Position numbers and translations under genes: made by a program. A model generated the notes under the pieces. It searched no databases. It was given only the letters and a program-made list of their open reading frames with translations, and was not told the origin of the DNA. A stretch of DNA of 64,000 bases. Origin: a virus. The first letter of the stretch is position 1; every line of letters begins with the position of its first letter. The stretch lies in IMG/VR virus record IMGVR_UViG_2928611649_000001, positions 1 to 64,000 of that record; one strand, 5' to 3'. Of the stretch, positions 4,785 through 52,459 are shown piece after piece.

Positions 4785-5155
4785 GCCGCCACCTCGATCA
4801 GTTCCATCCGGATGCTGACCTCGTTATCGAAGTCTATCCGGTCGGCGCTCACCAGCTTGATGCCGTCCGATCCGTCCAGCAGCGGCCAACCTTCAACACC
4901 TTGCACGGCGAACTCGTGCACCGCGCCAAGGCCGCTGGAGATTTCTTCCGCCAGCGCCCGGCGGCAAAGCATGTTGAGCACAGCGACCACAACATCGTCG
5001 TCTGCTTCCGCCAGCCGGTCGTCGGCGCCGCTCCAAAACTCGTTAATCAGCGTGCACAGGGCGATCATCTCGTCGCTCTCAGGCGCGCGCACGTCGACGA
5101 CGACATCGCTACAGGTATCGTCGAAGGTAAGGGTGTATCGGGCCCAGGTAATCAT
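4781..5155 (-). CDS. Acidic hypothetical protein
   Basis: 124 aa, in-operon coupling. Confidence 0.4.
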   Translation of the reverse strand: MITWARYTLTFDDTCSDVVVDVRAPESDEMIALCTLINEFWSGADDRLAEADDDVVVAVLNMLCRRALAEEISSGLGAVHEFAVQGVEGWPLLDGSDGIKLVSADRIDFDNEVSIRMELIEVAA

Positions 5156-6330
5156 GCTGCCACCCCGGCCACGTTCGCCACCACGTAGACGCCCTGCGTG
5201 CTGCCGACCACGTCGGCGGCTTCCATGGCCTGCAGCAGGCTGGAGGCCCGGTTGTAGGTAATCCGCAGCACGCGCTGCACCAGCGATATCGACGCGCGGT
5301 CCTGCTCTCGCACCAGCGCCACGGCGGCCGGGTACAGTGGGTCGGTGGCACTGCCATCGCCATCCGGGATACCACCCAGCCGCATCACTGCGCGCTGCGG
5401 CTGCACCGGCTCGTCGCCGGCCGCCGGCCGCGTCACCGGAGGCTCGCCCTCAGCCACGCCGCCCAGCGCCTCGACCAGGTCCGCCAGCAGCTTGGCCAGC
5501 TCGCCGCTGACCAGCGCGAAGTCGCCATCGAAGCGCTCAGCGTCGTCCTTGGCGTAGTTTTTCTCCGTCAGCACATCCAACAGCTTCACCGACTTGACGG
5601 CCAGGCTCTGGTCCAGCACGAAGCTGATCTTGCTATCCCATGTCATGGCCAGGCGGATGCACTGCTTCCCGGCGGCGATGTGGCGGCGCAACTCGTCCGC
5701 CTCGAGCGTGTGGCGCTTCCACTGCACCTGGGCCTTGCTCTCGCCGGTCGCCTGCAGGGTGGCGTCCATGTCGACCGTGAAGCCGGCTGGCGCATCGTCC
5801 GCCTGCAGCCACTCGGTCATCACGCCCACCGGTGAGCGCTGCACGCGCAAGCTCTCGACCGGGAACTTGTCGACGGCCTTGAGCAGCAACCTGATGACCT
5901 GGTCCGCCTTCGCCGGGCTGGCCGCGCCCACCACCAGCCATCCGTTGACCGGGTCGATCCAGACCCAAGTGCTGTCGCGCTTGGGGAATGCGCGCGGCAG
6001 CAGTTCGTCGGCGACGCGCTCGCGCAACTCCTTCATCGCCTTCTTGCCGGGCGCGAAGCCTTGCGCTTCTTCCATCTCGGCGGCGCGCGCCTTCGTCACC
6101 TGGTTGATGACGGCCGCCGGAAGCACCTTGGACTCGGTCGTGAGCTTCAGCAGGAACTGGCCGTTGATGACGTGGACCAGCTCGCCGGCCGGGCGCGGCG
6201 GCTCCCAGCCCTCGCGCAGCAGTTCGTTGCTGCCGGCCGGCGCGAAGGCCTGCTGCGCCAGCATGCGGTTGAGGGACTCGGCCGAAGTCAGGAAGCCGGG
6301 CAGGCGGTACATCTGAAGATTCTTAAACAT
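5152..6330 (-). CDS. rdgC: RdgC-like recombination-associated protein fused to a C-terminal FtsK-gamma winged-helix domain
   Basis: The N-terminus MFKNLQMYRL... is RdgC-like over ~300 aa. The C-terminal ~60 aa (DPLYPAAVALVREQDRASISLVQRVLRITYNRASSLLQAMEAADVVG) matches the FtsK gamma KOPS-binding domain. Confidence 0.6.
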   Translation of the reverse strand: MFKNLQMYRLPGFLTSAESLNRMLAQQAFAPAGSNELLREGWEPPRPAGELVHVINGQFLLKLTTESKVLPAAVINQVTKARAAEMEEAQGFAPGKKAMKELRERVADELLPRAFPKRDSTWVWIDPVNGWLVVGAASPAKADQVIRLLLKAVDKFPVESLRVQRSPVGVMTEWLQADDAPAGFTVDMDATLQATGESKAQVQWKRHTLEADELRRHIAAGKQCIRLAMTWDSKISFVLDQSLAVKSVKLLDVLTEKNYAKDDAERFDGDFALVSGELAKLLADLVEALGGVAEGEPPVTRPAAGDEPVQPQRAVMRLGGIPDGDGSATDPLYPAAVALVREQDRASISLVQRVLRITYNRASSLLQAMEAADVVGSTQGVYVVANVAGVAA

Positions 6331-7513
6331 GGTCAGCCTTTTGTTGGGTTGGGGAAGGGCGGCGATAGGTTTTGGTTAGGCCGCCGTTGACGCTGTGGCC
6401 GCGCCGGAGTACTGCGCGCGCCAGCGCCGCCCGGTCGCTGCGGCTGCTGAGCGACTGTCCGAGCAGGCCGAAGTAGCTGTTGGCGGATGCGAACACCTCG
6501 TCGGCGTCGATGCGAAGCACGCGGTTGACGGCCTGGCGGACGGTGCGGCGCCGGGTGCGCGTGTTCCATGGCTTGATGACGTGGCCGACGAAGTCGATCC
6601 CGCGCGCGACCGGCTGCAAGATGGTCTTGGTCGGGTTCAGGTTCGCGTGCAGCACGCCGGGCAGGAAGGTGTTGATGTCCGTCAGCGCGGCGTTCAGCCA
6701 CTGCGGCGACTCGTGCAGCAGCACGAAGTCATCCACGTAGCGGATGTAGTGCTGGGCGCGCACGCGGTGCTTCACGTGCTGGTCCAGCGCATCGAGGTAG
6801 ACGTTCGCGAAGAACTGTGATGACAAATTCCCGATGGGAAGTCCGCGGTGGGCCGGGTGGTTGGCCAGCCGCTTGTGCGCCGGAACCAGCGCCAGCAACT
6901 CCGGCGCGCCGCGCAGTTCGAAGTTCTCACGAGGGTCATGGAACAGAATGGTTTCGGCCAAGGCCAGCCACCAGGGCTCCGTGATCCGCGCCGCCAGCTG
7001 GCCGTGCAGCACTGCCTTGTCGATGGCGACGAAGAAGTTGGCGAGGTCGCATTTCAGATACCAGACTGGCTTCGACCAGTTCTGGCTGATGCTGCGCACT
7101 TTCGCCTCCAGGCGGCCGGCGGCGTACAGCGTGCCACGGCCCGGGATGCATGCGCAGGTATCTGGAATGAATGAGGCGTAGAAGCGCGGCGCCACGTGGT
7201 TGTACAGCACATGGTGCACGATACGGTCGGGGAAGTCAGCAGCCCAGACCTCGCGCGGCTTGGGGCGGGTGACGATAAAGCAGACCGAGGTGCCGGGCTT
7301 GTACGAGCCGTCGATCAGTTCGTCGTACAGCTGGATCAGGTTGCGCTCAAGGTCCTGCTCGAACACGAGAGCGCTGGGGGTATTGCGCTTGTGGCGCCGG
7401 CAGTCGAAGTACGCGACTACCAGCTCCTCAAAAGAGAAGTCTGCATCGGGTTGATCTGCGGACGGCGCGCGCGGCGCCGGCATACGACTTGTGGTTGTTG
7501 TTCTGGTTGCCAT
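6323..7513 (-). CDS. Diversity-generating retroelement reverse transcriptase
   Basis: 396 aa. It has the YVDDFV catalytic box and LPIGNLSSQFFANVYL (the DGR-specific SQ in place of QG in motif 4). It lies directly downstream of avd and the TR. The annotated start overlaps the TR 3' end. Confidence 0.85.
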   Translation of the reverse strand: MATRTTTTSRMPAPRAPSADQPDADFSFEELVVAYFDCRRHKRNTPSALVFEQDLERNLIQLYDELIDGSYKPGTSVCFIVTRPKPREVWAADFPDRIVHHVLYNHVAPRFYASFIPDTCACIPGRGTLYAAGRLEAKVRSISQNWSKPVWYLKCDLANFFVAIDKAVLHGQLAARITEPWWLALAETILFHDPRENFELRGAPELLALVPAHKRLANHPAHRGLPIGNLSSQFFANVYLDALDQHVKHRVRAQHYIRYVDDFVLLHESPQWLNAALTDINTFLPGVLHANLNPTKTILQPVARGIDFVGHVIKPWNTRTRRRTVRQAVNRVLRIDADEVFASANSYFGLLGQSLSSRSDRAALARAVLRRGHSVNGGLTKTYRRPSPTQQKADHV

Positions 7514-9031: not shown

Positions 9032-9661
9032 TCATGCTGGCACCGCCTCGGCCGCCGGCTGCTTGGCCGCGTCGTACTTCTCGATGCCCCAGGCTAGTGC
9101 GTAGCAGCACCAGACGATGCTGTGCGTGTACTCGGTCATGTCGTTCTCGAACAGATCGGTGAACGTCCAGCCATACGGGCGCTTCGGGTTGCTGCGCGGA
9201 TCGTGGCAGAAGTCGTAGGCAGCGTATTGAGCGCGGTCGCCGCCGTCCTCCAGCATGCGTAATACCTCATCGTCCACCGCTTCCCAAAGTTCACGGCGCC
9301 CAGCCTTGTCGAGTGCGCCGCTTTCCTTCGCGCTGCGCATCCAGCCGATGCGGTAATCATTGATGACGCGCTTGAACTTGGCCTCATCGAACTGCTTGAC
9401 CTTGCCTCCACCCCGATTGCCATCGACAGCGATCAGCTTCTCGGTCCAGTAGCCCAGGTTGATGCTCAGCGATCCATCAGCGCGGCGCGGCTTGCGGAAG
9501 AACTCGAACATGTCCGCCGTGCGCTCGAACACGTAGGTACCCATGTCGCCTGTGTAGCAGAGGTGGCCGGGCCAGGTGATCAGGTCGAAGTACTGGTTGC
9601 TCGTGCCCGGCTCCTTGAAGCGGACGTGGCGGCCCACACCGTCGTCGCGGATCACGATCAT
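9032..9661 (-). CDS. Hypothetical phage protein
   Basis: Start trimmed to MIVIRDDG. The upstream part of the track ORF is an Arg-rich GC artefact. Confidence 0.4.
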   Translation of the reverse strand: MIVIRDDGVGRHVRFKEPGTSNQYFDLITWPGHLCYTGDMGTYVFERTADMFEFFRKPRRADGSLSINLGYWTEKLIAVDGNRGGGKVKQFDEAKFKRVINDYRIGWMRSAKESGALDKAGRRELWEAVDDEVLRMLEDGGDRAQYAAYDFCHDPRSNPKRPYGWTFTDLFENDMTEYTHSIVWCCYALAWGIEKYDAAKQPAAEAVPA

Positions 9662-9711
9662 TTCGTGCTTGGCGACGTCGCCCAGGAACTGCTCTTCGGT
9701 GCAGGCGGCGC

Positions 9712-10437
9712 TCACGGTGCCACCGGCGCCAAGTCGGCCACGTCGATCACGATGCCACGGCAGTACGGCGTGCCGTCCTCGATGATCTCGAAGGTGGCAT
9801 GCGGCACGTCGGTATGGTAGGTCCAGCTGTAGCCCGGCTCGGCCGCCCACATCGCCTCGACCTTGCGGGTCGCCGGCTCGCGCGCGAAGTAGTCCTTGAG
9901 CTCTGCGTCCTCCTCGATGTTCTCGCGCTCCGGCAGCACGCCCTTGGCGTCGATCAGCGCGGTGCCGCCGCCGTAGCAATCGAACTCGCTGTTGGTCGCT
10001 CCTCGGAACTCCATCAGGTCGTCGCTGGCGCCGAAGATCACCAGCAGGCCGGCCGCTTTGGCCTGGCCCTGCTCGTCCTTCGTCAGGCCGAACGGATATT
10101 CGCGGCCGGACAGCGATGCAGCGAGCTGGTCGCGGTACGGGCGGTGTGTGGGCGCGGCGGCTACCGGCGCCGCCAGCGCCGCCGCATCCAACTTCACGAA
10201 CGGGAACAGATCCGGAAACTTCTTGATGCGCTGGATGAAGAACGAGCCCGCCGATTCGGCAGCCTGGAACTCGGCGAACATCGCGGCGTCGACGTTCTGG
10301 TAGTGGTAGGTGTCCACCACGCCGGTTTTCTTCGGGTGGAACTGGATGGCCAGCAGGTTCAGTTCTGGCGAGTGGCCGTAGGCCGCAAACTGCGAACTGT
10401 TGACCGGCTGCATGGTGATGGATGGGGTGGCGCTCAT
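9712..10437 (-). CDS. KTSC-domain-containing phage protein
   Basis: N-terminus KTGVVDTYHYQNVDAAMFAEFQAAESAGSFFIQRIK is KTSC-like. Confidence 0.45.
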   Translation of the reverse strand: MSATPSITMQPVNSSQFAAYGHSPELNLLAIQFHPKKTGVVDTYHYQNVDAAMFAEFQAAESAGSFFIQRIKKFPDLFPFVKLDAAALAAPVAAAPTHRPYRDQLAASLSGREYPFGLTKDEQGQAKAAGLLVIFGASDDLMEFRGATNSEFDCYGGGTALIDAKGVLPERENIEEDAELKDYFAREPATRKVEAMWAAEPGYSWTYHTDVPHATFEIIEDGTPYCRGIVIDVADLAPVAP

Positions 10438-10461: not shown

Positions 10462-11919
10462 TTAGGCGGCGTACTTGACGCGGACAGTGTCGACGTGGCG
10501 TTGGATGGCAGCGCAGATGCGCGGGAAGTCGGCGTCGTGATACAACTTGGCGGCCCTGTCGGTGTCCGCTGGCGCGAAGCCGAGCGACAGCAGGCCGTCG
10601 GCGCTGATTGCCAGCGGAGCGATGCGCTCGTTGATCTGGCCGAGGCGCAGCGTGGGCGGCGTGTACTCGGCATCGACCACGTCATCAGCCGGGGCTACAT
10701 CAGCGAACAGGCCGGCGGACACTAAATCAGTGGCGAGGTCAGCCAGGCGGCCATGATCGGCCAGCGCTGCGGCCTGGCCATCGGCAACCACGTTCGCCGC
10801 TGCCGCGCTGGCGGCGCTCGCGTTCGCCGCGGCAATCGCTGCTTCGCGGGTGGCGGCCTGCTGCTGGCCGGCGGCGCGCTCGTTGGCTTGGCGCTCGGCG
10901 GTGATGGTGGCCTGCTGCGCTTCCATCTGGCGTTTCGTCTCGGCAGCGACGCGGGCCTGCTCAGTGGCTTCGCGCTCGGCTTGGGCTGCGGCCTGCTGGG
11001 TGGCCAGTTCGGCGCGCTGGCGGTCGATCTCAGCTTGCGCCAGACGATTGGCCTCGGCCTGGGCGTCAGCCTCAGCCTTCAGCTTTGCGGCTGCGGCCTC
11101 ACGTTCCCGCAGTGCTGCGGCTTCCTGTTCGGCGGCCAGCGCGGCCAGACGGTCAGCTTCGGATTTCTGCTCGGCGGCGACGCGGTCGGCCTCCACTTGT
11201 GTCAGGCGGGCACGTTCGGCGGCGGCTTCGCGCAACTGGGCCAACTCGGCGCGCTCGGCCGCGATGCGGGCCGCTTCTTCTTCGCTACCCAGCGCGGCGG
11301 CGCGGGCGGCAGCCAACTTGGTCATCACCTCGGTGCGCGCCGTCAGCGCTGCATCCAACATGGTGCCGAACGACTCGCCCGGCACGTCGGTTTCTAATTC
11401 GGCGATCATGGCGGCTATGTCGGCAGAGGACTTGCCGACGGCTTCCAGCGGCAGCTCGCGGATGGCGACGATGCGCAGGCGGATGCGCTCCTGGCGCTCG
11501 ACTTCGGCCTTCTTCAGGTCATCCTTGCGCTTCTCCTCGGCCTTGATGGCGGCGTCGAACTTGGCTTCGTACGGCAAGACTGCGGTTTTCAGCTCGGCGT
11601 ATGAGGTGTCCAGGAGCTTGCCGATTTCCAGAATCGGGGCCTTGCGGACTACACGGGCCTTCTCGCCAGCTACCCGCACATCGTCGCGGAAGGCGGCGCG
11701 GTACTTGACCGCGATCTCCATGCCGGCCGTGGTGCTGGCGTCCGGCGTGATCGTGTCGGCCTCGGCCTTCAGGATGGCGAACTTTTCGTTGAAGGGCTTG
11801 AAGACCTCGGCGACGTACTTGGCCGGGTCCAGGGTGATCAGCTGGCTGGTCGCCGGTACGACGCCGGATTGGGTTGCGACGGCGCCGACTGCTTCGTTTT
11901 CTGCGGGATGGTTGTTCAT
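10462..11919 (-). CDS. Coiled-coil phage protein (Ala/Glu/Gln-rich central region)
   Basis: 485 aa. Globular N- and C-terminal regions flank a ~200-aa AEQ-rich coiled coil. It is adjacent to the RecT/exonuclease module. Confidence 0.45.
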   Translation of the reverse strand: MNNHPAENEAVGAVATQSGVVPATSQLITLDPAKYVAEVFKPFNEKFAILKAEADTITPDASTTAGMEIAVKYRAAFRDDVRVAGEKARVVRKAPILEIGKLLDTSYAELKTAVLPYEAKFDAAIKAEEKRKDDLKKAEVERQERIRLRIVAIRELPLEAVGKSSADIAAMIAELETDVPGESFGTMLDAALTARTEVMTKLAAARAAALGSEEEAARIAAERAELAQLREAAAERARLTQVEADRVAAEQKSEADRLAALAAEQEAAALREREAAAAKLKAEADAQAEANRLAQAEIDRQRAELATQQAAAQAEREATEQARVAAETKRQMEAQQATITAERQANERAAGQQQAATREAAIAAANASAASAAAANVVADGQAAALADHGRLADLATDLVSAGLFADVAPADDVVDAEYTPPTLRLGQINERIAPLAISADGLLSLGFAPADTDRAAKLYHDADFPRICAAIQRHVDTVRVKYAA

Positions 11920-14407: not shown

Positions 14408-14641
14408 TCACGGCGCAACTCCTTCACGGCTGACCAGCTTCGGCGCCGGCGCGTTGCGGTTCGTGCGCTCGATCTCGCGCAGGGCGTAGGTGCTGCCCGT
14501 GGCGATGCGGTCGCTGGCGTCCAGGTTGCCGCCGGTGATTGCGCCCAGCAGGCCGCTGTCCTGGTACTCGTAGTCCATCGCGGCGAAGACGGCAAGGCGC
14601 GAGTCGCGGCCGGCGGTCATGTGGTTGGCGGCGGTGTTCAT
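14408..14641 (-). CDS. Hypothetical protein (MNTAANHMTAGRDSRLAVFAAMDYEYQDSGLLGAITGG...)
   Basis: ATGA start overlaps the stop of the radical SAM gene. Confidence 0.35.
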   Translation of the reverse strand: MNTAANHMTAGRDSRLAVFAAMDYEYQDSGLLGAITGGNLDASDRIATGSTYALREIERTNRNAPAPKLVSREGVAP

Positions 14642-15579
14642 GCGGCGCTTTCCACTTCGCGAGGCGCATGCACGATTGGGAATGTGCGGCCGACGCTCGG
14701 GCGGGCCAGTTCCGGGTTGTTGCGCATCCAATCCTGTACAAACCACAGTTGACCGCAACCGCCGCCGATGTCGTCCTGGCCGGCCGGATCAAAGCAGCGG
14801 GTCGAGTAGCCGTAGGCGCCGAGCTTGCCCATGAAGTCGGTGGCCAGTTGGCGCTGGCGCACGTTCGCCGCCGCAACCGATTCATCGCGCTCACAGACCA
14901 CGGAGATGGTCGCCTGCCAGACATCCGGATCGAACATCGCATAGATGCGGTCGGCGTCGGCCTGAACCGTGTTGCCTTCGTGCGCGCGGTAGTTGAAGAA
15001 TGGCTGGCGCCCAGTAGCTACGAACCAGGCTTCGCCGGCCGCCGCGATCTGATGCAGGTTCAGCTTTGCCTTGAACGGCACCAGTGCGTCACGCGCAGCA
15101 TCGGTGCTTTCGTGCACGGAGAACTGGAGGCCAACAGCAGGCACCTCGACCGACAGTGCATTCACGCGCTCATAGTCCACGGCCGGCGCCGAGGTGCTGA
15201 TCAACAGCGAGAAGCGCGGGTACAACGCATGCAGCTGGCGGATGGCGTCGGCCAGGTGACCGAAGTTCAGCAGCGGCTCACCCATCGACATGAACATGAT
15301 CTGGCATTTCTCAACCTTGGCTGGGTCGATGTCGCGGTCGGCGAACAGGTGCTGAACCTGGCCAACGATCTCGTCGGCGGTCAGACTGCGCACGAACGCA
15401 TCGCCAGCGCCACAGAAACGGCAGCCGACAGGACAGCCGCTTTGCGTCGAGCAGCAGATGACGGTGCGTGCCTCGTAGGTCGGGTATTTGTACAGCACGG
15501 CTTCGGCGACGGCATTGCCGAAATCGAACACGTACTTGCTGACGTTCTGGTCGGTGGAATCGATGCGCTTCACTGCCAT
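14638..15579 (-). CDS. Radical SAM enzyme, RlmN/Cfr-like RNA methyltransferase family
   Basis: CSTQSGCPVGCRFC is a CX3CX2C cluster. IMFMSMGEPLLN matches the RlmN (V/I)FMGMGEPL block. The C-terminal GGGCGQL matches the RlmN second catalytic Cys (AACGQL). Start trimmed to MAVKRIDS with a GGAGA RBS. Confidence 0.65.
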   Translation of the reverse strand: MAVKRIDSTDQNVSKYVFDFGNAVAEAVLYKYPTYEARTVICCSTQSGCPVGCRFCGAGDAFVRSLTADEIVGQVQHLFADRDIDPAKVEKCQIMFMSMGEPLLNFGHLADAIRQLHALYPRFSLLISTSAPAVDYERVNALSVEVPAVGLQFSVHESTDAARDALVPFKAKLNLHQIAAAGEAWFVATGRQPFFNYRAHEGNTVQADADRIYAMFDPDVWQATISVVCERDESVAAANVRQRQLATDFMGKLGAYGYSTRCFDPAGQDDIGGGCGQLWFVQDWMRNNPELARPSVGRTFPIVHAPREVESAA

Positions 15580-15939
15580 GATGATCTCCTGTTGACTTCG
15601 TTGTTGGGGAGCGCGTAGGCCGCTCGCTGCCTGTGGTGTCCGGGCTACTTTCACTTTTACAGACTTGCCCGCTCAGCTTCACGGGGATTTCCGGGTCCGG
15701 GATCAGCTGGCCAGATTCAGTCATGCGGAAACCAACAGGGGAGGCGGCTAGCATGTGCGGTGCCGTATGTACGGCGCTGGCTCTGCGCTTTTGCTCGACC
15801 AGCTACAACCGGCCGCCTCCACTCTTGGCCCTGCGCTCACCTGGCGCAGCTCAGGGACCATGCTGATGTCTCAGGGCGCTTTTCGGGACGCCATTCCTGT
15901 ACCGGCTTGCCTACGGCGCCGGCCGACCGCTGTTTCTCG

Positions 15940-16323
15940 TTACGCGCCGCCGCGCATCCACTCGACGGCGATCATCTGCCGGCGGTTGCGCGCCCGGCAC
16001 TGCTCCGGATCAGCGCTGGCCGCGCGCTGCGCTGCCACGACCTGGGCCTCGGCCTCCTCGTCAGCCTGGCGCCGGGCCACCGCCAGCACTGCGTCACGGA
16101 AGGCGAGGCCGGTCAATTCCGCCGACGAGGTGAATGCTGCAATCAGCAGGGCGGCCAGTTGGCCGTTGTTCGCCAACTCCTCCAGCAGCCCGTTGGACAG
16201 GTCGCGGGTTGCGTCCTTGTCGCCGGCGATGACCGCGGCGCGGCGGCGCTGGAAGATGCTGGTGGACAGCTGCACCACGTAGCCGGCACAAACTTCCGCG
16301 CGCTCTTGAGCGTCCTGTTTCAT
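15940..16323 (-). CDS. Hypothetical protein
   Basis: 127-aa ORF. Its ATG overlaps the stop of the upstream small ORF (ATGA). Confidence 0.4.
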   Translation of the reverse strand: MKQDAQERAEVCAGYVVQLSTSIFQRRRAAVIAGDKDATRDLSNGLLEELANNGQLAALLIAAFTSSAELTGLAFRDAVLAVARRQADEEAEAQVVAAQRAASADPEQCRARNRRQMIAVEWMRGGA

Positions 16324-16501: not shown

Positions 16502-17134
16502 TTACTGAATTGGCAATCTGCGGACGGCGCGCGCGGCGCCGGCATACGACTTGTGGTCGTTGCCCTGGCCGCCATTGTCGAAGACCTGGCCCCAAGCGCC
16601 AGCCGGGTAGTCGGCGTGCTGCGTGCTCGACCAGTACCACTCGTCGTCATCGAAGGCATCAGCGCCGCCGGCGCGGAAATTCTCGACCGTGGTCTGCATC
16701 GGTGATTCATCGGTGTAGGCGGTGCCCACTGGCAGGCTGCCCGGGTTCACGCCATCGATGCCATCGGCGTAGTTCTCGCGGTCGGTCGGTTTCAGGTGGC
16801 GGTATTGCAGCTCCTGCTGGTCGCGCGCCGGGATTGACCAGTCGCTGAAGCCGTTAGTCGTCAGCGCCAGGACGGCCAGCGCCAGTTCGCTGCCGGCGGC
16901 GGCCATGGCTTGGGTGTTCGACAGGCCGTCGGTGCGGCTCATGGCGCCAGCAACCAGGTCCAGCGACTCGTTCCATTTGCCGCGCAGCTCACCGGTAGCG
17001 CCGGCCGTGACGTTCGCGAACATCTGCCCGTTCTCGATCGTGATGCCGGTGAAGTAGCCGCCTTCGAGCGGTGCGCCGATGGCGGGGAGGGCGGAAGCTG
17101 CGAAGACTGGTGCTGCGGCGAGTGCTTGGTTCAT
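16502..17134 (-). CDS. DGR target protein 2 (DUF1566/C-type-lectin-like), VR at its 3' end
   Basis: 210 aa. WSIPARDQQELQY...EWYWSSTQHADYPAGAWGQVFDNGGQGNDHKSYAGAARAVRRLPIQ shares the C-terminal scaffold with target 1. Confidence 0.65.
   Translation of the reverse strand: MNQALAAAPVFAASALPAIGAPLEGGYFTGITIENGQMFANVTAGATGELRGKWNESLDLVAGAMSRTDGLSNTQAMAAAGSELALAVLALTTNGFSDWSIPARDQQELQYRHLKPTDRENYADGIDGVNPGSLPVGTAYTDESPMQTTVENFRAGGADAFDDDEWYWSSTQHADYPAGAWGQVFDNGGQGNDHKSYAGAARAVRRLPIQ
16516..16624 (-). repeat. DGR variable repeat VR2 (remote, ~9 kb from the TR)
   Basis: 12 mismatches to TR, all at TR adenines. Confidence 0.8.
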
Positions 17135-17856
17135 GAACGGCTCCTGTGGGTTATGGGGTGCTTCAGTGGCAAAGCCCGCTCGTGGCGGGCAGGGATCAGT
17201 CTTGCGGCGGGGTTCGCTCGGCGGTCCAGACGGAGTGGACGATGAGCGCGATGCCGGCAGCGGCGATCAAGGCAAGGGCGTAACCCATGGCGATCAGCCC
17301 AACGAAGCCGGAACGGCCACGGTCGAGAAGTCGAAGGCTGGTGCTGGACCGGCTACTGCTGCGAGTGCTGCGAGTTCTGCTGGGTTCATCGTGTTCTCCG
17401 TCGTGGTTGGTGTGTCGATGGAAAACAGTTTAGCAAACACTAAATCAGAACGTCAAGCAAATACTAAACTTTGTGATAAAATAATTTCGTCGTGTGAATT
17501 TTGCGACCGCCCACCGGGAAGATCAGAAACCGGCGGTGCTTTTTTCTCGCGCGTTTGCGTGGGTAGAGTTGACTTGTAGTGCTGTGTGGTAATAGTTTGC
17601 TGTGGTTGTATAAAAAACATAAAACCAAGCAGGGGATAAAAACACAGTTCATTGCGAAGCAATGGACGCCGCGCGGCGAGCGCATGTGTGATTGATTAGA
17701 TAAATGATGAGTCGTCGTGTAAGCAACCAACTTCAAGCTTTAGCTACTACGCGGGCGAATACCATAAAACAGAGTTTGCGTGGAAAAAGATACGACGTTT
17801 TGTAGACGATTTTTGAAGTGAAAGGCCGCTTGGCGGTCGCCCATCCTGGGCAAAAA

Positions 17857-17885
17857 AAATGCCTCGACTGGCGAGGCTGGAAGGA
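17857..17885 (-). terminator. Rho-independent terminator (GCCTCGCCAGTCGAGGC + T8), minus strand
   Basis: Perfect 6-bp stem followed by ATTTTTTTTG on the minus strand. Confidence 0.5.
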
Positions 17886-17891
17886 GTTGAT

Positions 17892-18116
17892 ATGCACCAA
17901 CTACATCAGGAAGATCGTCCTGGCGATGTGATGATCACGAGAACGTGTATTCCTTCCAAGGAATCCGGGACGCATCGATTGACGCAAGGAAATTTACCAG
18001 ATCCGTCCGGCCCTGGTATTGAAACCGGCCACGCCCATCTTGCGACGCCAGAACAACTGAAAGCCCTGGAAAAAGTGGTTGCGCGTCTGCCCGAGTCCTA
18101 TCTGAGTCCGAGCTAG
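17892..18116 (+). CDS. Hypothetical protein (MHQLHQEDRPGDVMITRTCIPSKESGTHRL...). Conflicts with the overlapping antisense ORF.
   Basis: Perfect GGAGG RBS 7 nt upstream. Low GC3. Overlaps 17935..18195 on the opposite strand. Confidence 0.3.
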   Translation: MHQLHQEDRPGDVMITRTCIPSKESGTHRLTQGNLPDPSGPGIETGHAHLATPEQLKALEKVVARLPESYLSPS

Positions 18117-18195
18117 TATTCATCGCAGAGGGTTTGACGATGACAATCGCAAAGGTCACCCCTTGCTCTTTGATAACCGCACCTTGAAATTTCAT
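17935..18195 (-). CDS. Hypothetical protein (MKFQGAVIKEQGVTFAIVIVKPSAM...). Conflicts with the overlapping antisense ORF.
   Basis: The minus-strand terminator lies just downstream. Low GC3. Confidence 0.3.
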   Translation of the reverse strand: MKFQGAVIKEQGVTFAIVIVKPSAMNTSSDSDRTRADAQPLFPGLSVVLASQDGRGRFQYQGRTDLVNFLASIDASRIPWKEYTFS

Positions 18196-18807
18196 GTTTT
18201 TCTTTCGTAGTTTTGGAATGCGCCCGCCGCCGGGAAGCAATCGGGCGCGTTTCATTGTAGCGAAATTGACAAGCTAAAATATCACCAATAGTCATTGGCT
18301 CCGCCGTAGCCGCACCGACTGCAGACGTAAAAAAAGCCAGCGCTGTGCGAGCCTGAGAAGGGGTTGTAAACCGTGGGGAAGAAGAGTAAATTCCGTCAGT
18401 GATGGCGGGCCGGCGCTAACCGACCCGCTTCCCACTAGGAAAGAATTCGATCAACGAGCACGTGCAAAATTGCTGCAAGCGCCCAGAGATTGATTTCCAC
18501 CTTTACTGCTTTGATCGTCAGTTTAAACATGGCAGAAGCCCTGTTTGCGCTGGCGGTACCGCCAACTGGTTGAGGGTTGGCTTATTTTTTAAAGTGCGGT
18601 TGCTTGCACTTCGCCTTGGCGCGCTGCAGCGTGCTTCGGCACCATGCTAGCGAAGTGATCCGCCCGCATGGCTCAGCTCAGTGGGTTCGATTATCCGGAA
18701 TCCACCGGGCTCTACCACCACGTCACCTTCCGCACCTTGCTGGATGCGGACATGGCTTGCGACCATGCTCTTTCGGCCCGCGCATCGGATGGCGCGCGGG
18801 CTATTCT

Positions 18808-19029
18808 TTACCCCAACTCAGCGTCGTCGCCCGCCAGACCGCCGCGCGTGCCGCCCTTGGCCAGCAGCTCGCCATCGACAAGGCCGCCCTTCGTGCCACT
18901 GGTGGCTAGCAGTTCATCGTCGACCAAGCCGCCAGTCCTTTTCGTGCCTCCGTTATCCGCCAGTTTTTTACCGTCAGGCTTGGCGACCGCGGGCGATTTC
19001 TTTGCTGGGACGTGGGATTTTTTGATCAT
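18808..19029 (-). CDS. Small protein with three KGGLVDxELLA tandem repeats
   Basis: GGAG RBS. 73 aa. Confidence 0.4.
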   Translation of the reverse strand: MIKKSHVPAKKSPAVAKPDGKKLADNGGTKRTGGLVDDELLATSGTKGGLVDGELLAKGGTRGGLAGDDAELG

Positions 19030-19147
19030 AGGCCACTCCTGCTAGTTGGATTCAAGGGGGAGTTTGTGCATTGCTCAGCTGCTGAACCCGCCAGCCAAGC
19101 GCTTGTGTAGCTGGCCGTGGCGCACCGGATGGTGCGCGGGCTATTTC

Positions 19148-19705
19148 TTATTTGGGACAATTTTCACGGATAAAGTCTACGGATTCTCTGAACCCCTTCA
19201 GGTCGATGTCCTCGCCCAGCATGCCGCCAATAATTGTTCCAATTTGAACTCGAAGTCTTTTCCCGTCATACAGCTGGTCAAAGTAAGGCTCCAGGATTAA
19301 CGAGCCCAAATCGCTTTCACTTTCGGTAGCCCTCTGCTGCCCTTGAGCAGGTTCATCATTGATCCGAACAGTGTAGTATTTCACTCCACCTCGGCCTCTC
19401 ATCGAAATGAAGAAATATCGCAACCCTCCCTGAATGTTCCAATCGCCCTTATACAACGCGACACACGACTTCTTGTCCGTCATTGCGTTGATGCTTTGGT
19501 CTACTGTCCAGAATCCGGAACGAAAGGCGGTCTTGGCTGTTGGAGTTGCCGCTTTGTTACTGGTAGAAGGCTTTTCTGTTGCAGCGCCGGTGTCATAACA
19601 AGCCAAGCGAGCCTTGTCAGCTTTAATGGATGCACAGTCTGCGCCAAAAGCGAGCACTGGCAGTGCGACGGTCGCCGTCAGAGTTAAGCGGAGAATGGGA
19701 TTCAT
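19148..19705 (-). CDS. Secreted protein (Sec signal peptide MNPILRLTLTATVALPVLAFGADC)
   Basis: 185 aa with an N-terminal signal peptide. Located in the low-GC island. Confidence 0.5.
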   Translation of the reverse strand: MNPILRLTLTATVALPVLAFGADCASIKADKARLACYDTGAATEKPSTSNKAATPTAKTAFRSGFWTVDQSINAMTDKKSCVALYKGDWNIQGGLRYFFISMRGRGGVKYYTVRINDEPAQGQQRATESESDLGSLILEPYFDQLYDGKRLRVQIGTIIGGMLGEDIDLKGFRESVDFIRENCPK

Positions 19706-19785
19706 CGAGTTCCTTGAGGCGGCAGATGCGTGCCGGGTCGCCCTGCAATTATAGGAAAATTGACAACTGGAAATCTATCGAATTG

Positions 19786-20478
19786 TCACGATCGATTTAC
19801 CATGTCCAGCACGGACTCATCGCGGCCTGCGGTGATCTCGGCGCACCTGGTGCGCAGCTTGTGTAGGACGGCCGGACCGATGCCTTTGAACGCGAGCAAC
19901 TGCTCGTCGCTGGCTTGGTCGATTCGCGCGGGCGTGTCGAGAGCCACATCCCACATCGCCAAAGCCGCATGATGGGGCAGGGTGGGCACGGTCGCCAAGA
20001 AGGTAGGGAAATAATGTTCGCATATTTCATCGACATAGTGTCCACTCAGTCCGCTGTATTTTGCCCATTCCGGCCGAGTGACTTCCGCACGCAATAAGCG
20101 GAGTCGCTCCCTTGCTGGAAGTCTCAACTCCACTACTTTGCGTAGAGCGATGAGAAATTGGGGATAGATCAGATCATAGCCATTTCTAATTGCCATCTCG
20201 AACGTCTGCCACCCAATGCCAGGATCATCCATATCTATGCCGATTTCACGCAGCGTCTTGAGCTTAGTCGACCAGTGGCCTTGATGTGAATTATCTGCAA
20301 ATTGCGGCGGGCAATAATTCAGGTCGTAGTGGCGGTACCCATGCCATTGCAGTACCGCTAGCGGGGTATCGAAGTGCAATGCGGCACGGAACTCAACGCC
20401 ATTGCATATTTCTGAATTGAGCCGTATTCCCTCAGCGCCGCCAGGCGAAATCTTGCTCCAGCATCTCCAAACCTTCAC
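19786..20478 (-). CDS. Hypothetical protein with a C-terminal helix-hairpin-helix (LLAFKGIGPAVLHKL)
   Basis: 230 aa. Confidence 0.4.
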   Translation of the reverse strand: MKVWRCWSKISPGGAEGIRLNSEICNGVEFRAALHFDTPLAVLQWHGYRHYDLNYCPPQFADNSHQGHWSTKLKTLREIGIDMDDPGIGWQTFEMAIRNGYDLIYPQFLIALRKVVELRLPARERLRLLRAEVTRPEWAKYSGLSGHYVDEICEHYFPTFLATVPTLPHHAALAMWDVALDTPARIDQASDEQLLAFKGIGPAVLHKLRTRCAEITAGRDESVLDMVNRS

Positions 20479-20496
20479 TCAACCCTCCGCGCAGCG

Positions 20497-20739
20497 TTAC
20501 TTGCTGGCCAGGTCGTGCATCTCCTTGACCAATGCTTTTGTCTCCGCACTGTCGCGCGCTAAAACGCGTAGCAAGTCGTAGATCGGGCCTGCTTGGAGCC
20601 GGTCGATAATCTCCGCGTTGAGCGTGCGGCCGTTGTACTCGGCGATCTCCATCAACTTGGCATGCAATTCTCTCGGGATTCGCAGCGATGTCTTAATGTA
20701 GTCGTCTTGCGTCGGCTTCTTGATGGGCGATTTGTTCAT
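20497..20739 (-). CDS. Arc/MetJ-type ribbon-helix-helix DNA-binding protein
   Basis: KTSLRIPRELHAKLMEIAEYNGRTLNAEIIDRL is a typical RHH. Confidence 0.5.
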   Translation of the reverse strand: MNKSPIKKPTQDDYIKTSLRIPRELHAKLMEIAEYNGRTLNAEIIDRLQAGPIYDLLRVLARDSAETKALVKEMHDLASK

Positions 20740-21049
20740 CGCCCAATTGTTTCTGACCCGCCAAGTTTTAGGCTAAAAACTCCTTCATAATGAAGGGTGA
20801 TTGTGAGAATCTGTTACTTTTCATTTCACAAGTAAAGGTTAAAAACCCCTCTACTTTTGATATGCAATCAAGGCAAACCTGTAATATAGTTAACACACTG
20901 TAAACATTTGATAGCAGAGTATTATGGAAAACTTACCCCGGATAGTTGCTGCATACGAGAAGATGGATAAGCAGGCACGCGACAAGTATGTATTGCGTAT
21001 GGAGCAGTCCGCCATCCGATACCCGATGCAGGTCCAGCAGCGTGCAAAT

Positions 21050-21436
21050 CTACGACTTGTTACTAATGAGAACCGGTGACTGAATTAGGCGCTCTGTTGC
21101 CTCGGCCTCATCTAAGATATCCCTCTGCCCCCGTTCACTAGTCGTTCGGAAGAGAGTTACCAAGTGCATTTCTTCTTCGTTCAACCAAGCGTAGAAAGGC
21201 GCGCGCGATGCGGGCGACTCGCGTGGCGGCTCAACTGGGCGCACATACTCCACGCCATCCGGCGTATCGAGATAACCGGCGCCCATCTTATATTTTTCCT
21301 CTAAGCGACGAGCGACCTTCTCCCCGAAGGAGCCATCCCCGCGCAATTGCGAAAAAAGACTCTTCTCTTGTTTTGGTATGCCGTTGTCGGCAACCCACTT
21401 GGCAAGGTTCGCTCTGCGAGTGTCAGTGATGTTCAT
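21050..21436 (-). CDS. CI-like phage repressor (HTH, no S24 peptidase domain)
   Basis: ANLAKWV..KSLFSQLRG..FGEKVARRLEEKYKMGAGYLD is a lambda/P22-type repressor HTH. Divergent from the cro-like gene. Confidence 0.55.
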   Translation of the reverse strand: MNITDTRRANLAKWVADNGIPKQEKSLFSQLRGDGSFGEKVARRLEEKYKMGAGYLDTPDGVEYVRPVEPPRESPASRAPFYAWLNEEEMHLVTLFRTTSERGQRDILDEAEATERLIQSPVLISNKS

Positions 21437-21507
21437 GCGCGCAGTTTAGTGTTTATTAAAGTAGTAATCACTTGACAGGTGGTTTAGCATTCACTAAACT
21501 CGCCTGC
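21437..21507. promoter_or_regulatory. Immunity-region divergent promoter/operator region with GTTTAG half-sites
   Basis: gtttagtg at ~21446. gtttagCATTCActaaac is an 18-bp palindrome at ~21489-21506. agtttagtg and cactaaact form an inverted pair. Confidence 0.45.
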
Positions 21508-21783
21508 ATGGACCTGAAAAAATACATCTCCGCCGAGCGCGGACGCGCCAAATCGCTTGCTGCCCACCTGGGCATCTCGCCTTCATTCCTTTCGCAAATC
21601 GCGGCAGGAACAGCGCCAGCTTCGCCATCCAGGTGCTTGGAGATCGAGAAGGGCACCGGCGGCCAAGTCACACGCAAGGACCTGCGCGAAGACTGGCGCG
21701 AAATCTGGCCCGAGCTCAAGCAATCCAACGCCAATCCCCAGCGCGCCACCACCCCGCGCAAGCCTGCGAAGGAAGTCGCATGA
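21508..21783 (+). CDS. Cro/YdaS-like HTH regulator
   Basis: LAAHLGISPSFLSQIAAG...CLEIEKGTGGQVTRKDLRED matches the YdaS/Cro family. Confidence 0.55.
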   Translation: MDLKKYISAERGRAKSLAAHLGISPSFLSQIAAGTAPASPSRCLEIEKGTGGQVTRKDLREDWREIWPELKQSNANPQRATTPRKPAKEVA

Positions 21784-21992
21784 AAACCGCTACCCAAGAT
21801 CACTTTTTGTGCGTCGTCATAGTCGCCGCTATCGCGGAAGCACGCCGCGCAGGCGATGACGTGAAAGTCGCCAGCGAGGCTGCCGCCAAGGCGTATGTGG
21901 CTGGACTAGTAGCGGCGGATGCGCCCGGCGAAAACAGCGGCGAGCGGGTTATCAGCGCTACGGGCCAGGTGGAATATCGCCCTCCGTCGTGA
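21780..21992 (+). CDS. Hypothetical protein
   Basis: 70 aa. ATGA overlaps the cro-like stop. Confidence 0.35.
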   Translation: MKTATQDHFLCVVIVAAIAEARRAGDDVKVASEAAAKAYVAGLVAADAPGENSGERVISATGQVEYRPPS

Positions 21993-22265
21993 GTAGTTTT
22001 TGCAGTTCCGCAATGGCTGTTCGAATCGGTATCTCCTGCAGCTTGGTGGAGTCCATTGGACCCTCAAGTGTCATTGGCCCCGTTATGTCGATTCTCACGT
22101 TGAGCCAGCCGAAGTCGTATGTGCCCGAAGTTTTGACTTTCCCGTTGATGAAAGTCGCAGTCATTTCTTTTTTGCAGTCCATGGGAGATCCCTTTGCAAG
22201 TTGTTGTGTGAGAACTGCAACTGTAACGCATTGGAATCTCCCGCCCATATTTTGGAAAGCACCAC

Positions 22266-39288: not shown

Positions 39289-39376
39289 GGAAGCATGGCT
39301 GAGAGGCCGAAAGCAACGGCTTGCTAAGCCGCACGCTCGCAAGGGCGCCCAGGTTCGAATCCTGGTGCTTCCGCCA
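39289..39376 (+). tRNA. tRNA-Ser (anticodon GCU), type II with a long variable arm
   Basis: GGAAGCA...TGCTTCC acceptor stem. CCAGG-TTCGAAT-CCTGG T arm. Anticodon loop TTGCTAA. 3' GCCA. Confidence 0.7.
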
Positions 39377-39381
39377 GTTTT

Positions 39382-39455
39382 GCGGGTGTAGCTCAATGGC
39401 AGAGCTGACGCTTTCCAAGCCTATGACCAGGGTTCGATTCCCTGTACCCGCTCCA
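39382..39455 (+). tRNA. tRNA-like, probable tRNA-Gly (UCC) with an imperfect anticodon stem (possibly degenerate)
   Basis: GCGGGTG...TACCCGC acceptor stem. CAGGG-TTCGATT-CCCTG T arm. Loop TTTCCAA. The anticodon stem GACGC/GCCTA pairs at only 3 of 5 positions. Confidence 0.45.
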
Positions 39456-48951: not shown

Positions 48952-50712
48952 ATGACCATCACCACCACGATCAAAGCAGGCGACTCGCCGCAGACCATCA
49001 CGCTGCACGAGGGCAAGGCGCTGACGCTGACCGGCGCAGCTGGCGCCGTCGGTGTCGCGTACCAGCTCGACCTGGTGCTCGGCGGCACGAACTCGGTGAA
49101 GTCATGGGCGGTCGGCACTGGCGCACTGCCGCAGATCGGCCCCTACTCCGGCACGCAGAATATCCTGATCACCTGCACCGCAGGTAGTATTAATGCGACG
49201 GTGGGGGATGCGGCAGTGACGAATTCAGCCACCATCGCAAATCTCGGGAATACCTCGATCGTGCACGCTCCGCGCACCCTGCTGCTGGCTAGCGATTCCA
49301 TCGGCGCCATTTCCGAGGTCATTCTCGGCGCCACGTCGGTGGTGGACAATGGTGACGGTACCGGCACTGCGACCAAGGGGAGCACTTGGGGCGCCAGCGT
49401 CGGTGAGCCGATCCGCATCTGCTCCGCGACTACCAAGACTTTGAATGTGATGGACAGCTACATCTCGGCGATCACCAACGGCGGTAACTCGCTGGTGTTC
49501 CCACTGGGCGGCCGTACATCAACCGTGACATCGCCGTCCACACCGAGCGTGGTGTTCCCAAACCGACGTGGCTCACGCGGCTACCTGAACGCCATGGAGA
49601 TGTTCCTGGGCATTTCGTTCAAGACGACGTGGTGCGGCGTGGCGGGCGCTACGTCCACACAGATCAACACGCTGCTCAACGAGACGCCTCAGACCGGCCT
49701 GTACGATGTTGGTGTTTTTGAGCTCGGCATGAATGACGTCTACTCGGCGCTGCTGGACACGGTTACAGCCTGGCCTCTGCTGAAAGCAGCCATCGACAAC
49801 GTGCGCGGCCGGTGCGGAACGCTGCTGGCCCTCCCTATTCCCCCGCGCGACAGCAGCAGTGGGCAGTGGACGGCGCAACGCCAGACCTATCATACCCAGC
49901 TGAATCGCCTGATCTACGACTACGTGCTGTCCATCGGTGGTTACTTCATCGACACCTGGAAAGCGATGCAGAACGGCGTGACCTATGTGAATCCCGCCGC
50001 GACCAACCCGGACCCATTGACGGCATTCATGTTTGACACGACCCATCCGGCATGGCCAGGCGCATTGGCGATAGGCCGAGCTATGGCCACTCCGCTATTA
50101 CCTCGCATGGGCGCGCCAGGCTGGCAGCCATCGCACGCCAACATGCTGCTGGCGGACAGTGGAAACCTGCTGACCGATGCGGCATTCGCGGTTGATACCA
50201 ACGCCGATGGTGTCTCTGATGGCTGGGCCTTAGTCAGCACCACGGCCAATATGAGCGTCGTTCCCAGTCGCGTACAGCGCACCATCGCCACGGATGGTGA
50301 TGGTGTGGGTTACAACCAGAAACTGCTGTGCAACTACGGAACTGCTACCGGCACTGCTTCTACCAAATTCAGTAAGGCCGGCATGCAAGCGCTGGTTGCT
50401 TCGTATGTTGGGCAAAAGGTGCAGTTCAAGCTGCCATTCTCGCTCACTGGCGCTGTCGGCCTGATCGGTCTGGAGCTGACGATTATGGGTACACTCCCGA
50501 ACAGCCAGAGCTGGCAGATCTACGGGAATGCGCTCGACAGCAGCGCCAAGGCCATCACCGGATCGTTGGCCGGAACGCTGATGACGCCAGAGGCAATTGT
50601 TCCGGCGGGGCTTACGAATCTCGATATATGGGTTCGCCCCTACTTCAATTCGACGCAGACAGCAGACATGACGCTGTTGCTGTGGCAGCCGGATCTGCGC
50701 ATAGCCAGCTAG
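48952..50712 (+). CDS. SGNH/GDSL-family hydrolase domain protein (putative virion-associated esterase)
   Basis: LLLASDSIG is block I GDSx. GMNDV is block III. DTTHPA is block V DxxH. Confidence 0.55.
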   Translation: MTITTTIKAGDSPQTITLHEGKALTLTGAAGAVGVAYQLDLVLGGTNSVKSWAVGTGALPQIGPYSGTQNILITCTAGSINATVGDAAVTNSATIANLGNTSIVHAPRTLLLASDSIGAISEVILGATSVVDNGDGTGTATKGSTWGASVGEPIRICSATTKTLNVMDSYISAITNGGNSLVFPLGGRTSTVTSPSTPSVVFPNRRGSRGYLNAMEMFLGISFKTTWCGVAGATSTQINTLLNETPQTGLYDVGVFELGMNDVYSALLDTVTAWPLLKAAIDNVRGRCGTLLALPIPPRDSSSGQWTAQRQTYHTQLNRLIYDYVLSIGGYFIDTWKAMQNGVTYVNPAATNPDPLTAFMFDTTHPAWPGALAIGRAMATPLLPRMGAPGWQPSHANMLLADSGNLLTDAAFAVDTNADGVSDGWALVSTTANMSVVPSRVQRTIATDGDGVGYNQKLLCNYGTATGTASTKFSKAGMQALVASYVGQKVQFKLPFSLTGAVGLIGLELTIMGTLPNSQSWQIYGNALDSSAKAITGSLAGTLMTPEAIVPAGLTNLDIWVRPYFNSTQTADMTLLLWQPDLRIAS

Positions 50713-51899: not shown

Positions 51900-51937
51900 C
51901 GTCGCCTCTAATAAACTTGACCATTGGGAATATTATT

Positions 51938-52459
51938 ATGGCACTAAATGTCGAAACCGGCGCCGGCCTGGCGAATGCCGAGAGCTACATCTCGGTCGCG
52001 GACGCGACGACTTACCACGCGAACCTCGGCAACTCCGCATGGGCGGCGCTGGCGTCCGACACCGTGCGCGAGCAGCTCTTGCGCCAAGCGACCGAGTACA
52101 TGGTTGGCCAGTACCGCGACAACTGGAAGGGTCAGCGCACGAGCGCCACGCAGGCGCTGGACTGGCCGCGCTACAACGTGCAACTTCCCGATGTCGGCAT
52201 TGGCCGATATCCCGCCTACGTCCAGCCCAACGTCGTCCCGGTCGAGGTGGCGAACGCCTGCGCCGTTCTGGCGCTGCAAGCCATCAGCGGCCCGCTGGCG
52301 CCGAACCTGGAACGCACCATCAAGCAGGACACGGTCGGCCCGCTGACGACAATCTACGCTGATGGGGCTCCAGAGCGGCCGCGCTACACGGCCGTCGACA
52401 ACATGCTGAAGGTGTACTTGGCCGGATCGGGCACGTCGGGAAGGTTGGTACGCGGATGA
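51938..52459 (+). CDS. Head-tail connector / adaptor candidate
   Basis: Position only. 173 aa. Confidence 0.4.
   Translation: MALNVETGAGLANAESYISVADATTYHANLGNSAWAALASDTVREQLLRQATEYMVGQYRDNWKGQRTSATQALDWPRYNVQLPDVGIGRYPAYVQPNVVPVEVANACAVLALQAISGPLAPNLERTIKQDTVGPLTTIYADGAPERPRYTAVDNMLKVYLAGSGTSGRLVRG

Follow-up and report, generated by a model that had tools for sequence, protein, structure and literature searches.

The 64,000-nt stretch of viral DNA analyzed in this study (positions 1 to 64,000 of IMG/VR virus record IMGVR_UViG_2928611649_000001, further called the window) is nearly all prophage and contains, on its minus strand, a gene for a short protein related to the radical S-adenosylmethionine (SAM) RNA methyltransferases RlmN and Cfr. 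The coding sequence, stop codon included, is located at 14638..15579 and encodes 313 aa, the interval and length reported by a first-pass annotation of this DNA, in which no strand was named. The underlying open reading frame (ORF) spans 14638..15654 and encodes 338 aa when counted from a GTG codon. We prefer the ATG at 15579 over the GTG at 15654 because of a Shine-Dalgarno sequence (AGGAG, 15586..15590, minus strand), which lies 7 nt 5' of this ATG, and because homologues begin at the same residue. The 313-aa protein is 100% identical to the NCBI entry ‘radical SAM protein [Duganella violaceipulchra]’.

All three motifs noticed in the first pass are present, specifically C49-PVG-C53-RF-C56, FMSMGEPLLN (residues 96-105) and GGGCGQL (residues 272-278). 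Pfam only yields a marginal Radical_SAM domain (30.3 bits), while the best NCBIfam matches are RlmN (TIGR00048, E-value 2e-25) and the Cfr models (about 1e-20). By sequence, an RlmN-like enzyme from Sphaerobacter comes closest among solved structures, along with E. coli RlmN and Cfr (3e-17 to 9e-14); these similarities go far beyond what chance would give. An AlphaFold2 model of the 313-aa protein, built from 37 diverse relatives, has a predicted local distance difference test (pLDDT) score of 86.7 and a predicted template modeling score (pTM) of 0.87, and begins at a three-strand beta-extension. It displays the features of class A radical SAM methylases: a partial (beta-alpha)6 barrel, the beta extension and a C-terminal loop with the methyl-carrying cysteine. 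When this model was compared with the PDB using Foldseek, the top 11 hits were all RlmN or Cfr structures (1e-18 to 1.5e-10; TM-score up to 0.73) and the next fold class was viperin (5e-5). Other radical SAM subfamilies (QueE, NrdG, MiaB) only gave marginal sequence matches (0.04-0.13) and were rejected. Judged by both sequence and predicted fold, the protein thus belongs to the RlmN/Cfr superfamily, as proposed earlier, with no competing radical SAM subfamily.

When the protein is aligned with Cfr(B), E. coli RlmN and a protein of the PRK14464 type, C42, C49/C53/C56 and C275 are invariant, as are the MGEP, S-T and S-x-H motifs and R163. Residue conservation was also counted over 337 members of the family described below (all codon positions of this gene are on the minus strand). 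The C49-x3-C53-x2-C56 motif (15412..15435), equivalent to C125/C129/C132 of E. coli RlmN, provides the ligands of the radical SAM [4Fe-4S] cluster and is found in 336-337 of the 337 members. Both mechanistic cysteines, for which an alignment with E. coli RlmN and Cfr had been suggested as a check, are kept in all 337. C42 (codon 15454..15456) corresponds to RlmN C118 and Cfr C105, which resolve the covalent intermediate, and C275 of GGGCGQL (codon 14755..14757) corresponds to the methyl-carrying RlmN C355 and Cfr C338. Neither of the two outcomes named in the first pass as refuting the assignment, a better match to another radical SAM subfamily and the lack of the second catalytic cysteine, was therefore observed. 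The protein very probably uses the ping-pong methylation mechanism of RlmN and Cfr.

On sequence criteria, the protein is not an orthologue of either enzyme. Every RlmN or Cfr equivalog score is three- to tenfold under its curated cut-off, with 89.5 bits vs 290 for TIGR00048 and 62.6 vs 633 for NF008396 (RlmN), and 71.8 vs 550, 73.9 vs 530 and 71.6 vs 468 for the Cfr models (TIGR04432/NF000424 set). The N-terminal HhH2 domain (roughly 70-85 residues in RlmN) is absent, as the first-pass annotation had recognized: profile matches begin around position 76 of the RlmN model, 87 residues of RlmN but only seven of the window protein precede window residue 8 in the alignments, and the AlphaFold2 model opens at the beta-extension. 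In the cryo-EM structure of Cfr bound to rRNA, the HhH2 domain anchors helices H91 and H92 and is described as crucial for rRNA binding, while R327 contacts the target nucleotide and Tyr97 the target ribose (PMC13001441).

The C-terminal substrate loop differs as well. Where RlmN (R344), Cfr (R327) and proteins of the PRK14464 type share a conserved Arg, the window protein has F263 (codon 14791..14793), a position that is Phe in 337/337 members. The next position (K345 in RlmN; S328 in Cfr, where it likewise contacts the target nucleotide) is Asp or Asn at 264, and RlmN R347 is replaced by Ala266. The position of Cfr N288 is not kept as Asn, with an alignment of that strand that shifts by 2-3 residues between runs. 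C229 (codon 14893..14895), at the end of barrel strand beta-6, is invariant in the family (337/337) and occupied by other residues in RlmN and Cfr; it is part of a (V/I)C-x-x-D motif where RlmN has IPxNP (IPWNP). Long RlmN-type representatives with N-terminal domains (e.g., P0239, P0253, P0261) have Asn at the position of C229 and Arg at that of F263. The C-terminal tail (14638..14745) consists of a WFVQDWM helix followed by P-LA-PS-G...VH-P and is conserved in the core family but absent from a more divergent branch; the model predicts disorder from residue 297 (pLDDT < 50 for residues 297-313). The catalytic region has a net charge of -3 to -13 in most members, compared with -2 for RlmN and +2 for Cfr(B), which as a sign against an RNA substrate is only suggestive.

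Among characterized relatives, E. coli RlmN (PDB 3RF9/3RFA; tRNA complex 5HR6/5HR7; TIGR00048) has the same fold (Foldseek E-value 6e-17 to 1e-13, TM-score about 0.7) and shares the CX3CX2C motif, the MGEP SAM motif, both mechanistic cysteines and the three-strand beta extension before the barrel. Sequence identity is only 22-25%, and the window protein differs by its missing HhH2 domain, the F263/D264/A266 loop, the extra C229 (along with C198 in the core family) and the WFVQDWM tail. Moreover, RlmN is encoded by a housekeeping gene, whereas the short family is phage-borne and linked to genes of nicotinamide adenine dinucleotide (NAD) metabolism. Cfr and Cfr(B) (PDB 9P0P) belong to the same superfamily, and Tyr97 of Cfr aligns with the invariant Tyr32 of the window protein, but the latter has neither the HhH2 domain nor the basic alpha5/beta6 loop insertion. 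The best solved match is the probable RlmN of Sphaerobacter thermophilus (PDB 6FZ6), with a sequence E-value of 2.6e-17, a fold E-value of 1.1e-18, a TM-score of 0.73 and 26% identity; its chain of 366 aa matches from residue 106 and therefore has the N-terminal region that is missing in the window protein.

The window protein is a member of a large, uncharacterized and strongly conserved family that is mainly found in phages and extends over many phyla. We define this family as proteins of about 290-315 aa that start from the beta extension and carry the signature Y30, Y32, R38, C42, C229, F263, D/N264 and C275. The window protein has the full signature, as have at least 336 of the 337 relatives, and among short forms it is kept down to about 32% identity. 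In RlmN and Cfr, the residues aligned with Tyr32 and Arg38 belong to the nucleotide pocket. Among the 120 closest clusters, identity is 74-100% and length 307-341 aa; a second branch of about 295 aa is likewise abundant. Clustering at 50% gives 76 representatives at E-values of 1e-30 or below, beyond which the scores shade gradually into those of further short RlmN-like proteins and of genuine RlmN. Some members have N-terminal extensions without any Pfam domain. Members are encoded by 38 IMG/VR viral contigs, by lytic phage isolates of Stenotrophomonas, Xanthomonas, Salmonella, Vibrio and Aeromonas and by a 462-kb jumbo phage, but by only 79 of about 185,000 bacterial species genomes. These bacterial carriers include Proteobacteria, Actinomycetota, Bacteroidota, Bacillota, Saccharibacteria and Planctomycetota, and identity reaches 58-70% between, for instance, the Mycolicibacterium copy and the betaproteobacterial copy of the window.

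PHROGs only returned a weak match to a family of unknown function. No PADLOC defense component matched the radical SAM protein, by which a component of a known defense system was discarded. Papers on RlmN/Cfr phylogeny describe no truncated or viral clade. In JGI and UniRef, the short family is labeled ‘23S rRNA (adenine2503-C2)-methyltransferase’; our data suggest that this label is a homology over-reach that touches hundreds to thousands of phage and metagenome entries. In two related phages in GenBank, the radical SAM match is labeled ‘prohibitin family protein’, apparently an annotation slip. A distant short RlmN-like domain (about 27-33% identity) is found in a protein of 759 aa (P0237), where it is fused to a dNTPase-like HD phosphohydrolase with HD_assoc; in the wider clade, this is a further fusion that involves nucleotide metabolism.

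The genomic context of the family was analyzed by clustering all ORFs from 117 family loci, and neighbor families were confirmed with Pfam. Thirteen neighbor families recur in six loci or more, and NAD+ genes make up nine of them: Nudix-NrtR (13 loci), Nampt (12), PncB (12), PncA (9), NadD-like (9), NadM-Nudix (8), Prs (8), glutamine-dependent NadE (7) and ammonia-dependent NadE (6). Nudix domains are present in the neighborhood in about 21 loci and Macro domains in four. A NAD gene lies within 8 kb in 31/117 loci (27/91 if the count is restricted to loci with 3 kb or more on each side) and within 300 bp in 23 loci. Counted as lineages at 70% identity, NAD genes are nearby in 14/45 and within 300 bp in 11/45. 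The linkage is seen in all identity tiers, including a locus (L007) with a protein 76% identical to that of the window, only 19 bp from Nampt.

The radical SAM (rSAM) gene is often situated within the NAD cluster with overlapping codons, in varying arrangements: PncB-PncA-rSAM-Nudix/NrtR (Ornithinimicrobium), PncB-rSAM-NadE...NadD-PncC-NadK-Nudix/NrtR, PncA-PncB-NadE-rSAM, NadM-Nudix-rSAM-Nampt, Prs-Nampt-rSAM (Vibrio phage PS17B-2) and NadA-rSAM. There is also one rSAM-Nudix fusion, with a Nampt-family gene starting 2 nt behind it and an NMNAT-like gene after that. Loci of Saccharibacteria are flanked by MetRS and TatD, so these copies look cellular rather than prophage-borne. One NAD cluster with the RlmN-like gene (L099) contains, between NadE and NadD, a second radical SAM protein, which is small (233 aa; 10824-11522, plus strand). 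Open-access papers and preprints yielded no account of the short RlmN-like family and none that links NAD salvage to a radical SAM partner, and the family-level NAD linkage appears to be unreported.

We tentatively favor, with a probability of roughly 0.45, a stand-alone methylase of the class A radical SAM type, with a NAD-type nucleotide as its substrate and a role in a NAD-centered conflict between phage and host. A NAD-type substrate is preferred because the RNA-binding features are lost and because of the linkage to NAD genes. The enzyme would represent the RlmN/Cfr catalytic core without the RNA-docking domain. By homology, a first SAM molecule would methylate Cys275. A second SAM would be cleaved at the iron-sulfur cluster bound by C49/C53/C56, and the resulting 5'-deoxyadenosyl radical would convert the S-methyl group of Cys275 into a methylene radical. 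The latter would attack an electron-poor heteroaromatic ring at an sp2 carbon, after which Cys42 would resolve the covalent intermediate to release a C-methyl product. Based on the family context, the substrate would be a soluble nucleotide of the NAD pathway and not rRNA or tRNA; within NAD+, ADP-ribose or a derivative, the adenine ring would be the most likely target and the pyridine ring a less likely one. The enzyme may thus be an optional accessory to phage NAD+ reconstitution and counter-defense, which in the window prophage would be expressed from the early-left operon and work with host NAD enzymes.

A more specific form of this proposal is doubtful: that here, for the first time, a class A radical SAM methylase uses a free nucleotide cofactor as its substrate and C-methylates the adenine (or nicotinamide) of NAD+, ADP-ribose or a NAD-derived signal to give a product that resists, inhibits or misdirects NADase-based immunity. 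If it were true, the family would be an unrecognized third component of phage NAD+ counter-defense that is also present in some NAD salvage operons of Saccharibacteria and Actinomycetota. If the NAD link is functional, RlmN/Cfr-type chemistry would extend from RNA to a soluble cofactor, and a new enzyme class would be added to the phage response to NADase defense (Thoeris, SIR2-HerA, DSR and others), which is now explained by NARP1-3 and signal-degrading enzymes.

Several observations weigh against a NAD-type substrate. Class A radical SAM methylases are too slow to convert a millimolar NAD pool, and we know of none with a small-molecule substrate. About 70% of the loci have no nearby NAD gene, the 64-kb window contains none at all, and none is found within 7-10 kb in phages ANB28, Arash, Ahp1 and the 462-kb jumbo phage. 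The Nudix fusion is rare, being a single cluster on one contig. The link is backed neither by a riboswitch (no riboswitch or cis-regulatory RNA reached the Rfam gathering threshold near the gene in the window and in nine NAD-linked loci) nor by a conserved partner ORF. A small partner ORF that overlaps the stop codon in the window and in some phages was considered as such and rejected, as the downstream ORFs are non-homologous across loci. In addition, the net-charge evidence is merely suggestive, and the window copy itself carries a unique C198R exchange. Finally, Nampt is frequent among large phages (22-33%; PMC9503650) and phage accessory genes cluster in islands, so that some co-location is to be expected by chance and part of the linkage could have arisen in the absence of any shared pathway.

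The neighborhood in some large phages also weakens the case for a NAD-type substrate and would fit RNA instead. The radical SAM gene lies inside tRNA arrays in two loci (L012, L014) and in phage ANB28, and between RNA ligase genes in phage Arash. Overall, tRNA or tmRNA genes are present in 26/117 loci, and the window prophage encodes two tRNAs. The family could be an RNA adenine C-methyltransferase producing 2- or 8-methyladenosine (m2A/m8A) on 23S A2503, tRNA position 37 or phage tRNAs, either for translation remodeling or for protection from anticodon nucleases. The only characterized homologues methylate RNA, the catalytic cysteines and the nucleotide-pocket residues Tyr32 and Arg38 are conserved, and the very high conservation across phyla suits a universal target. 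We nevertheless regard an RNA substrate as unlikely. The protein fails all RlmN/Cfr equivalog cut-offs, lacks the HhH2 domain that would anchor a folded RNA and has lost the basic residues of the substrate loop. A tRNA gene within 1 kb is found in six loci only, against 23 loci with a NAD gene within 300 bp, and the cellular copies reside in NAD operons and not in ribosome or tRNA operons. Moreover, hosts have an RlmN of their own, whose substrate is naked rRNA in the course of assembly (PMC13001441). As a main theme, tRNA linkage was thus set aside, being real in some large phages but loose in comparison with the NAD linkage.

A cautionary precedent is given by the clostridial ‘Cfr-like’ clade (ClCp, C. 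sporogenes), which does not methylate A2503 in vivo or in vitro (PMC5062987). In these superfamily members, annotation by homology fails to predict activity; the proteins are full-length, cellular and closer to Cfr, and their kinship to the short family is known at superfamily level only. The action on A2503 or on A37 of tRNA that the first-pass annotation had suggested is not supported by the scores, the missing HhH2 domain and the replacement of R344/R327 by Phe, and in place of a role in host translation the gene context of the family indicates NAD+ metabolism. An effect on antibiotic susceptibility is unlikely as well, given the features that set the protein apart from RlmN and Cfr, the NAD context and the inactivity on A2503 of even a closer Cfr-like clade. 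Plasmids are where cfr genes reside, but among the 72,556 plasmids of PLSDB there is no close homologue, the best matches being genuine rlmN or cfr genes at up to 32% identity. For resistance surveillance, the gene is unlikely to represent a hidden phage-borne cfr.

The NAD+ reconstitution systems of phages offer a parallel to the gene context of the favored NAD-linked methylase. In some phage loci of the family, the radical SAM gene is inserted in or next to gene pairs of the NARP1 type (Prs-Nampt) or the NARP2 type (NadM-Nudix, Nampt), in a similar way as RyDEP is associated with NARP1 (Adps+Namat; NARP2 comprises Nampt+Nmnat). RyDEP, initially a gene of no known function within a NARP1 operon, was found to hydrolyze cyclic ADP-ribose (cADPR) signals, thereby feeding NAD+ synthesis (PMC13232231). 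The fold and chemistry of the NARP accessory genes are unrelated to those of the radical SAM protein, and the latter is also found with the Preiss-Handler genes PncA, PncB, NadD or NadE and stands alone in most loci. The papers on NARP1/2, NARP3 and RyDEP (PMC13232231) and surveys of viral NAD and ADP-ribose functions mention no radical SAM, RlmN or Cfr component.

The same context data, together with the Macro and Nudix domains, are also compatible with an action on adenine-containing immune signals (cADPR isomers, cyclic oligoadenylates or cyclic GMP-AMP-type molecules), on ADP-ribosylated macromolecules or on NAD-capped RNA, in which case the adjacency to NAD genes would reflect a shared counter-defense island. 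RyDEP indeed acts on a signaling nucleotide, and a slow enzyme would be better matched to a low-abundance target than to the bulk NAD pool. However, copies in apparently cellular Preiss-Handler operons, such as those of Saccharibacteria between MetRS and TatD, argue for a metabolic link, no PADLOC defense component matches, and the sequence does not point to a specific signal. We consider this explanation improbable.

Whatever the function of the family, the copy in the window may be impaired. Residue 198, at the active-site end of barrel strand beta-5, is encoded by CGC (14986..14988, minus strand) and is Arg, while it is Cys in 335/337 relatives; the only two exceptions are the window sequence and its identical database entry. 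A single transition from TGC explains the change. Cys198 is typical of the core family (at least 45% identity), whereas more distant short forms have Ile or Val but never Arg. The window copy may thus be affected in its activity, or the base call may be wrong. That it represents impaired or decaying cargo is nonetheless unlikely. The ORF is of full length with an intact ribosome-binding site, all catalytic residues are kept, and the third-position GC content of 0.76 is within the range of the neighboring prophage genes. In addition, Ile and Val are tolerated at this position in distant relatives, Cys198 may not be catalytic, and Arg198 could be an assembly error.

The gene is part of a complete prophage, in accordance with the location proposed in the first pass. 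An integrase is encoded at 1-1110. To the left of the radical SAM gene lie genes for an RdgC-FtsK-gamma fusion, a reverse transcriptase, NinB, a YqaJ exonuclease and RecT, and to the right those for an anti-repressor, a DNA methyltransferase, a helicase, terminase, portal, major head and tape measure proteins. Divergent repressor-like and Cro-like ORFs near 21.4 kb, recognized from their translations only, place the radical SAM gene in a leftward early operon. A sigma-70-like promoter of its own was not found, terminator-like sites are no more common than in shuffled sequences, and the gene is probably transcribed as part of this early-left operon.

The vicinity of the recombination module (RecT, YqaJ) in the window, along with C5 DNA methyltransferases in four family loci, could hint at an anti-restriction modification of the phage genome by C-methylation of its adenines. 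The protein is, however, acidic and has no nucleic acid-binding domain, its cellular copies are located in NAD operons, and genes for replication or modification do not consistently accompany it. We know of no C2- or C8-methyladenine in DNA and deem this explanation highly improbable.

Directly upstream of the radical SAM gene are an ORF of 127 aa (15940-16323, minus strand) without a match in Pfam, PHROGs or PADLOC, and a gene for a protein of 210 aa (16502-17134, minus strand) with a weak Lcl_C/phrog_4245 match. Two further genes of the early operon, 10462-11919 (minus strand, 485 aa) and 9032-9979 (minus strand, 315 aa), only match PHROGs of unknown function (phrog_16469 and phrog_4657, respectively). 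In locus L001, the gene call splits the equivalent of the latter into a KTSC-domain protein and another ORF.

The two tRNAs of the window, Ser(GCT) and Gly(TCC), are located at 39289-39455 (plus strand) between the replication and packaging modules. Phage-encoded tmRNA genes are found a few kb from the radical SAM gene in three IMG/VR loci (L008, L012, L028), beside tRNA arrays. An SPFH/Band-7 (prohibitin-like) gene lies near the radical SAM gene in six loci, including those of Stenotrophomonas phage ANB28 (L040) and L051.

Two stretches of the window, around 17200-22000 and 50000-52000, have a low GC content (0.52-0.55, compared with about 0.63-0.65) and are probably morons or foreign inserts. 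The first stretch contains few confident ORFs, among which a signal-peptide-like ORF of 185 aa (19148-19705) and the putative repressor/Cro pair.

In the early-left operon, a full-length RdgC (5152-6330, minus strand; E-value 2e-103) carries a C-terminal FtsK-gamma domain, which binds FtsK-orienting polar sequences (KOPS), an unusual architecture. It is encoded beside the prophage reverse transcriptase (6323-7513, minus strand), which matches RVT_1 and phrog_1423 (7e-116) and gives generic reverse transcriptase and weak DRT UG4 matches in PADLOC. Directly 5' of this ORF is a full-length Rfam RT-15 RNA (RF03018; 7560-7750, minus strand), which scores 163 bits against a gathering score of 82, and the adjoining position of both elements indicates a pair of a reverse transcriptase and a structured non-coding RNA in this operon.

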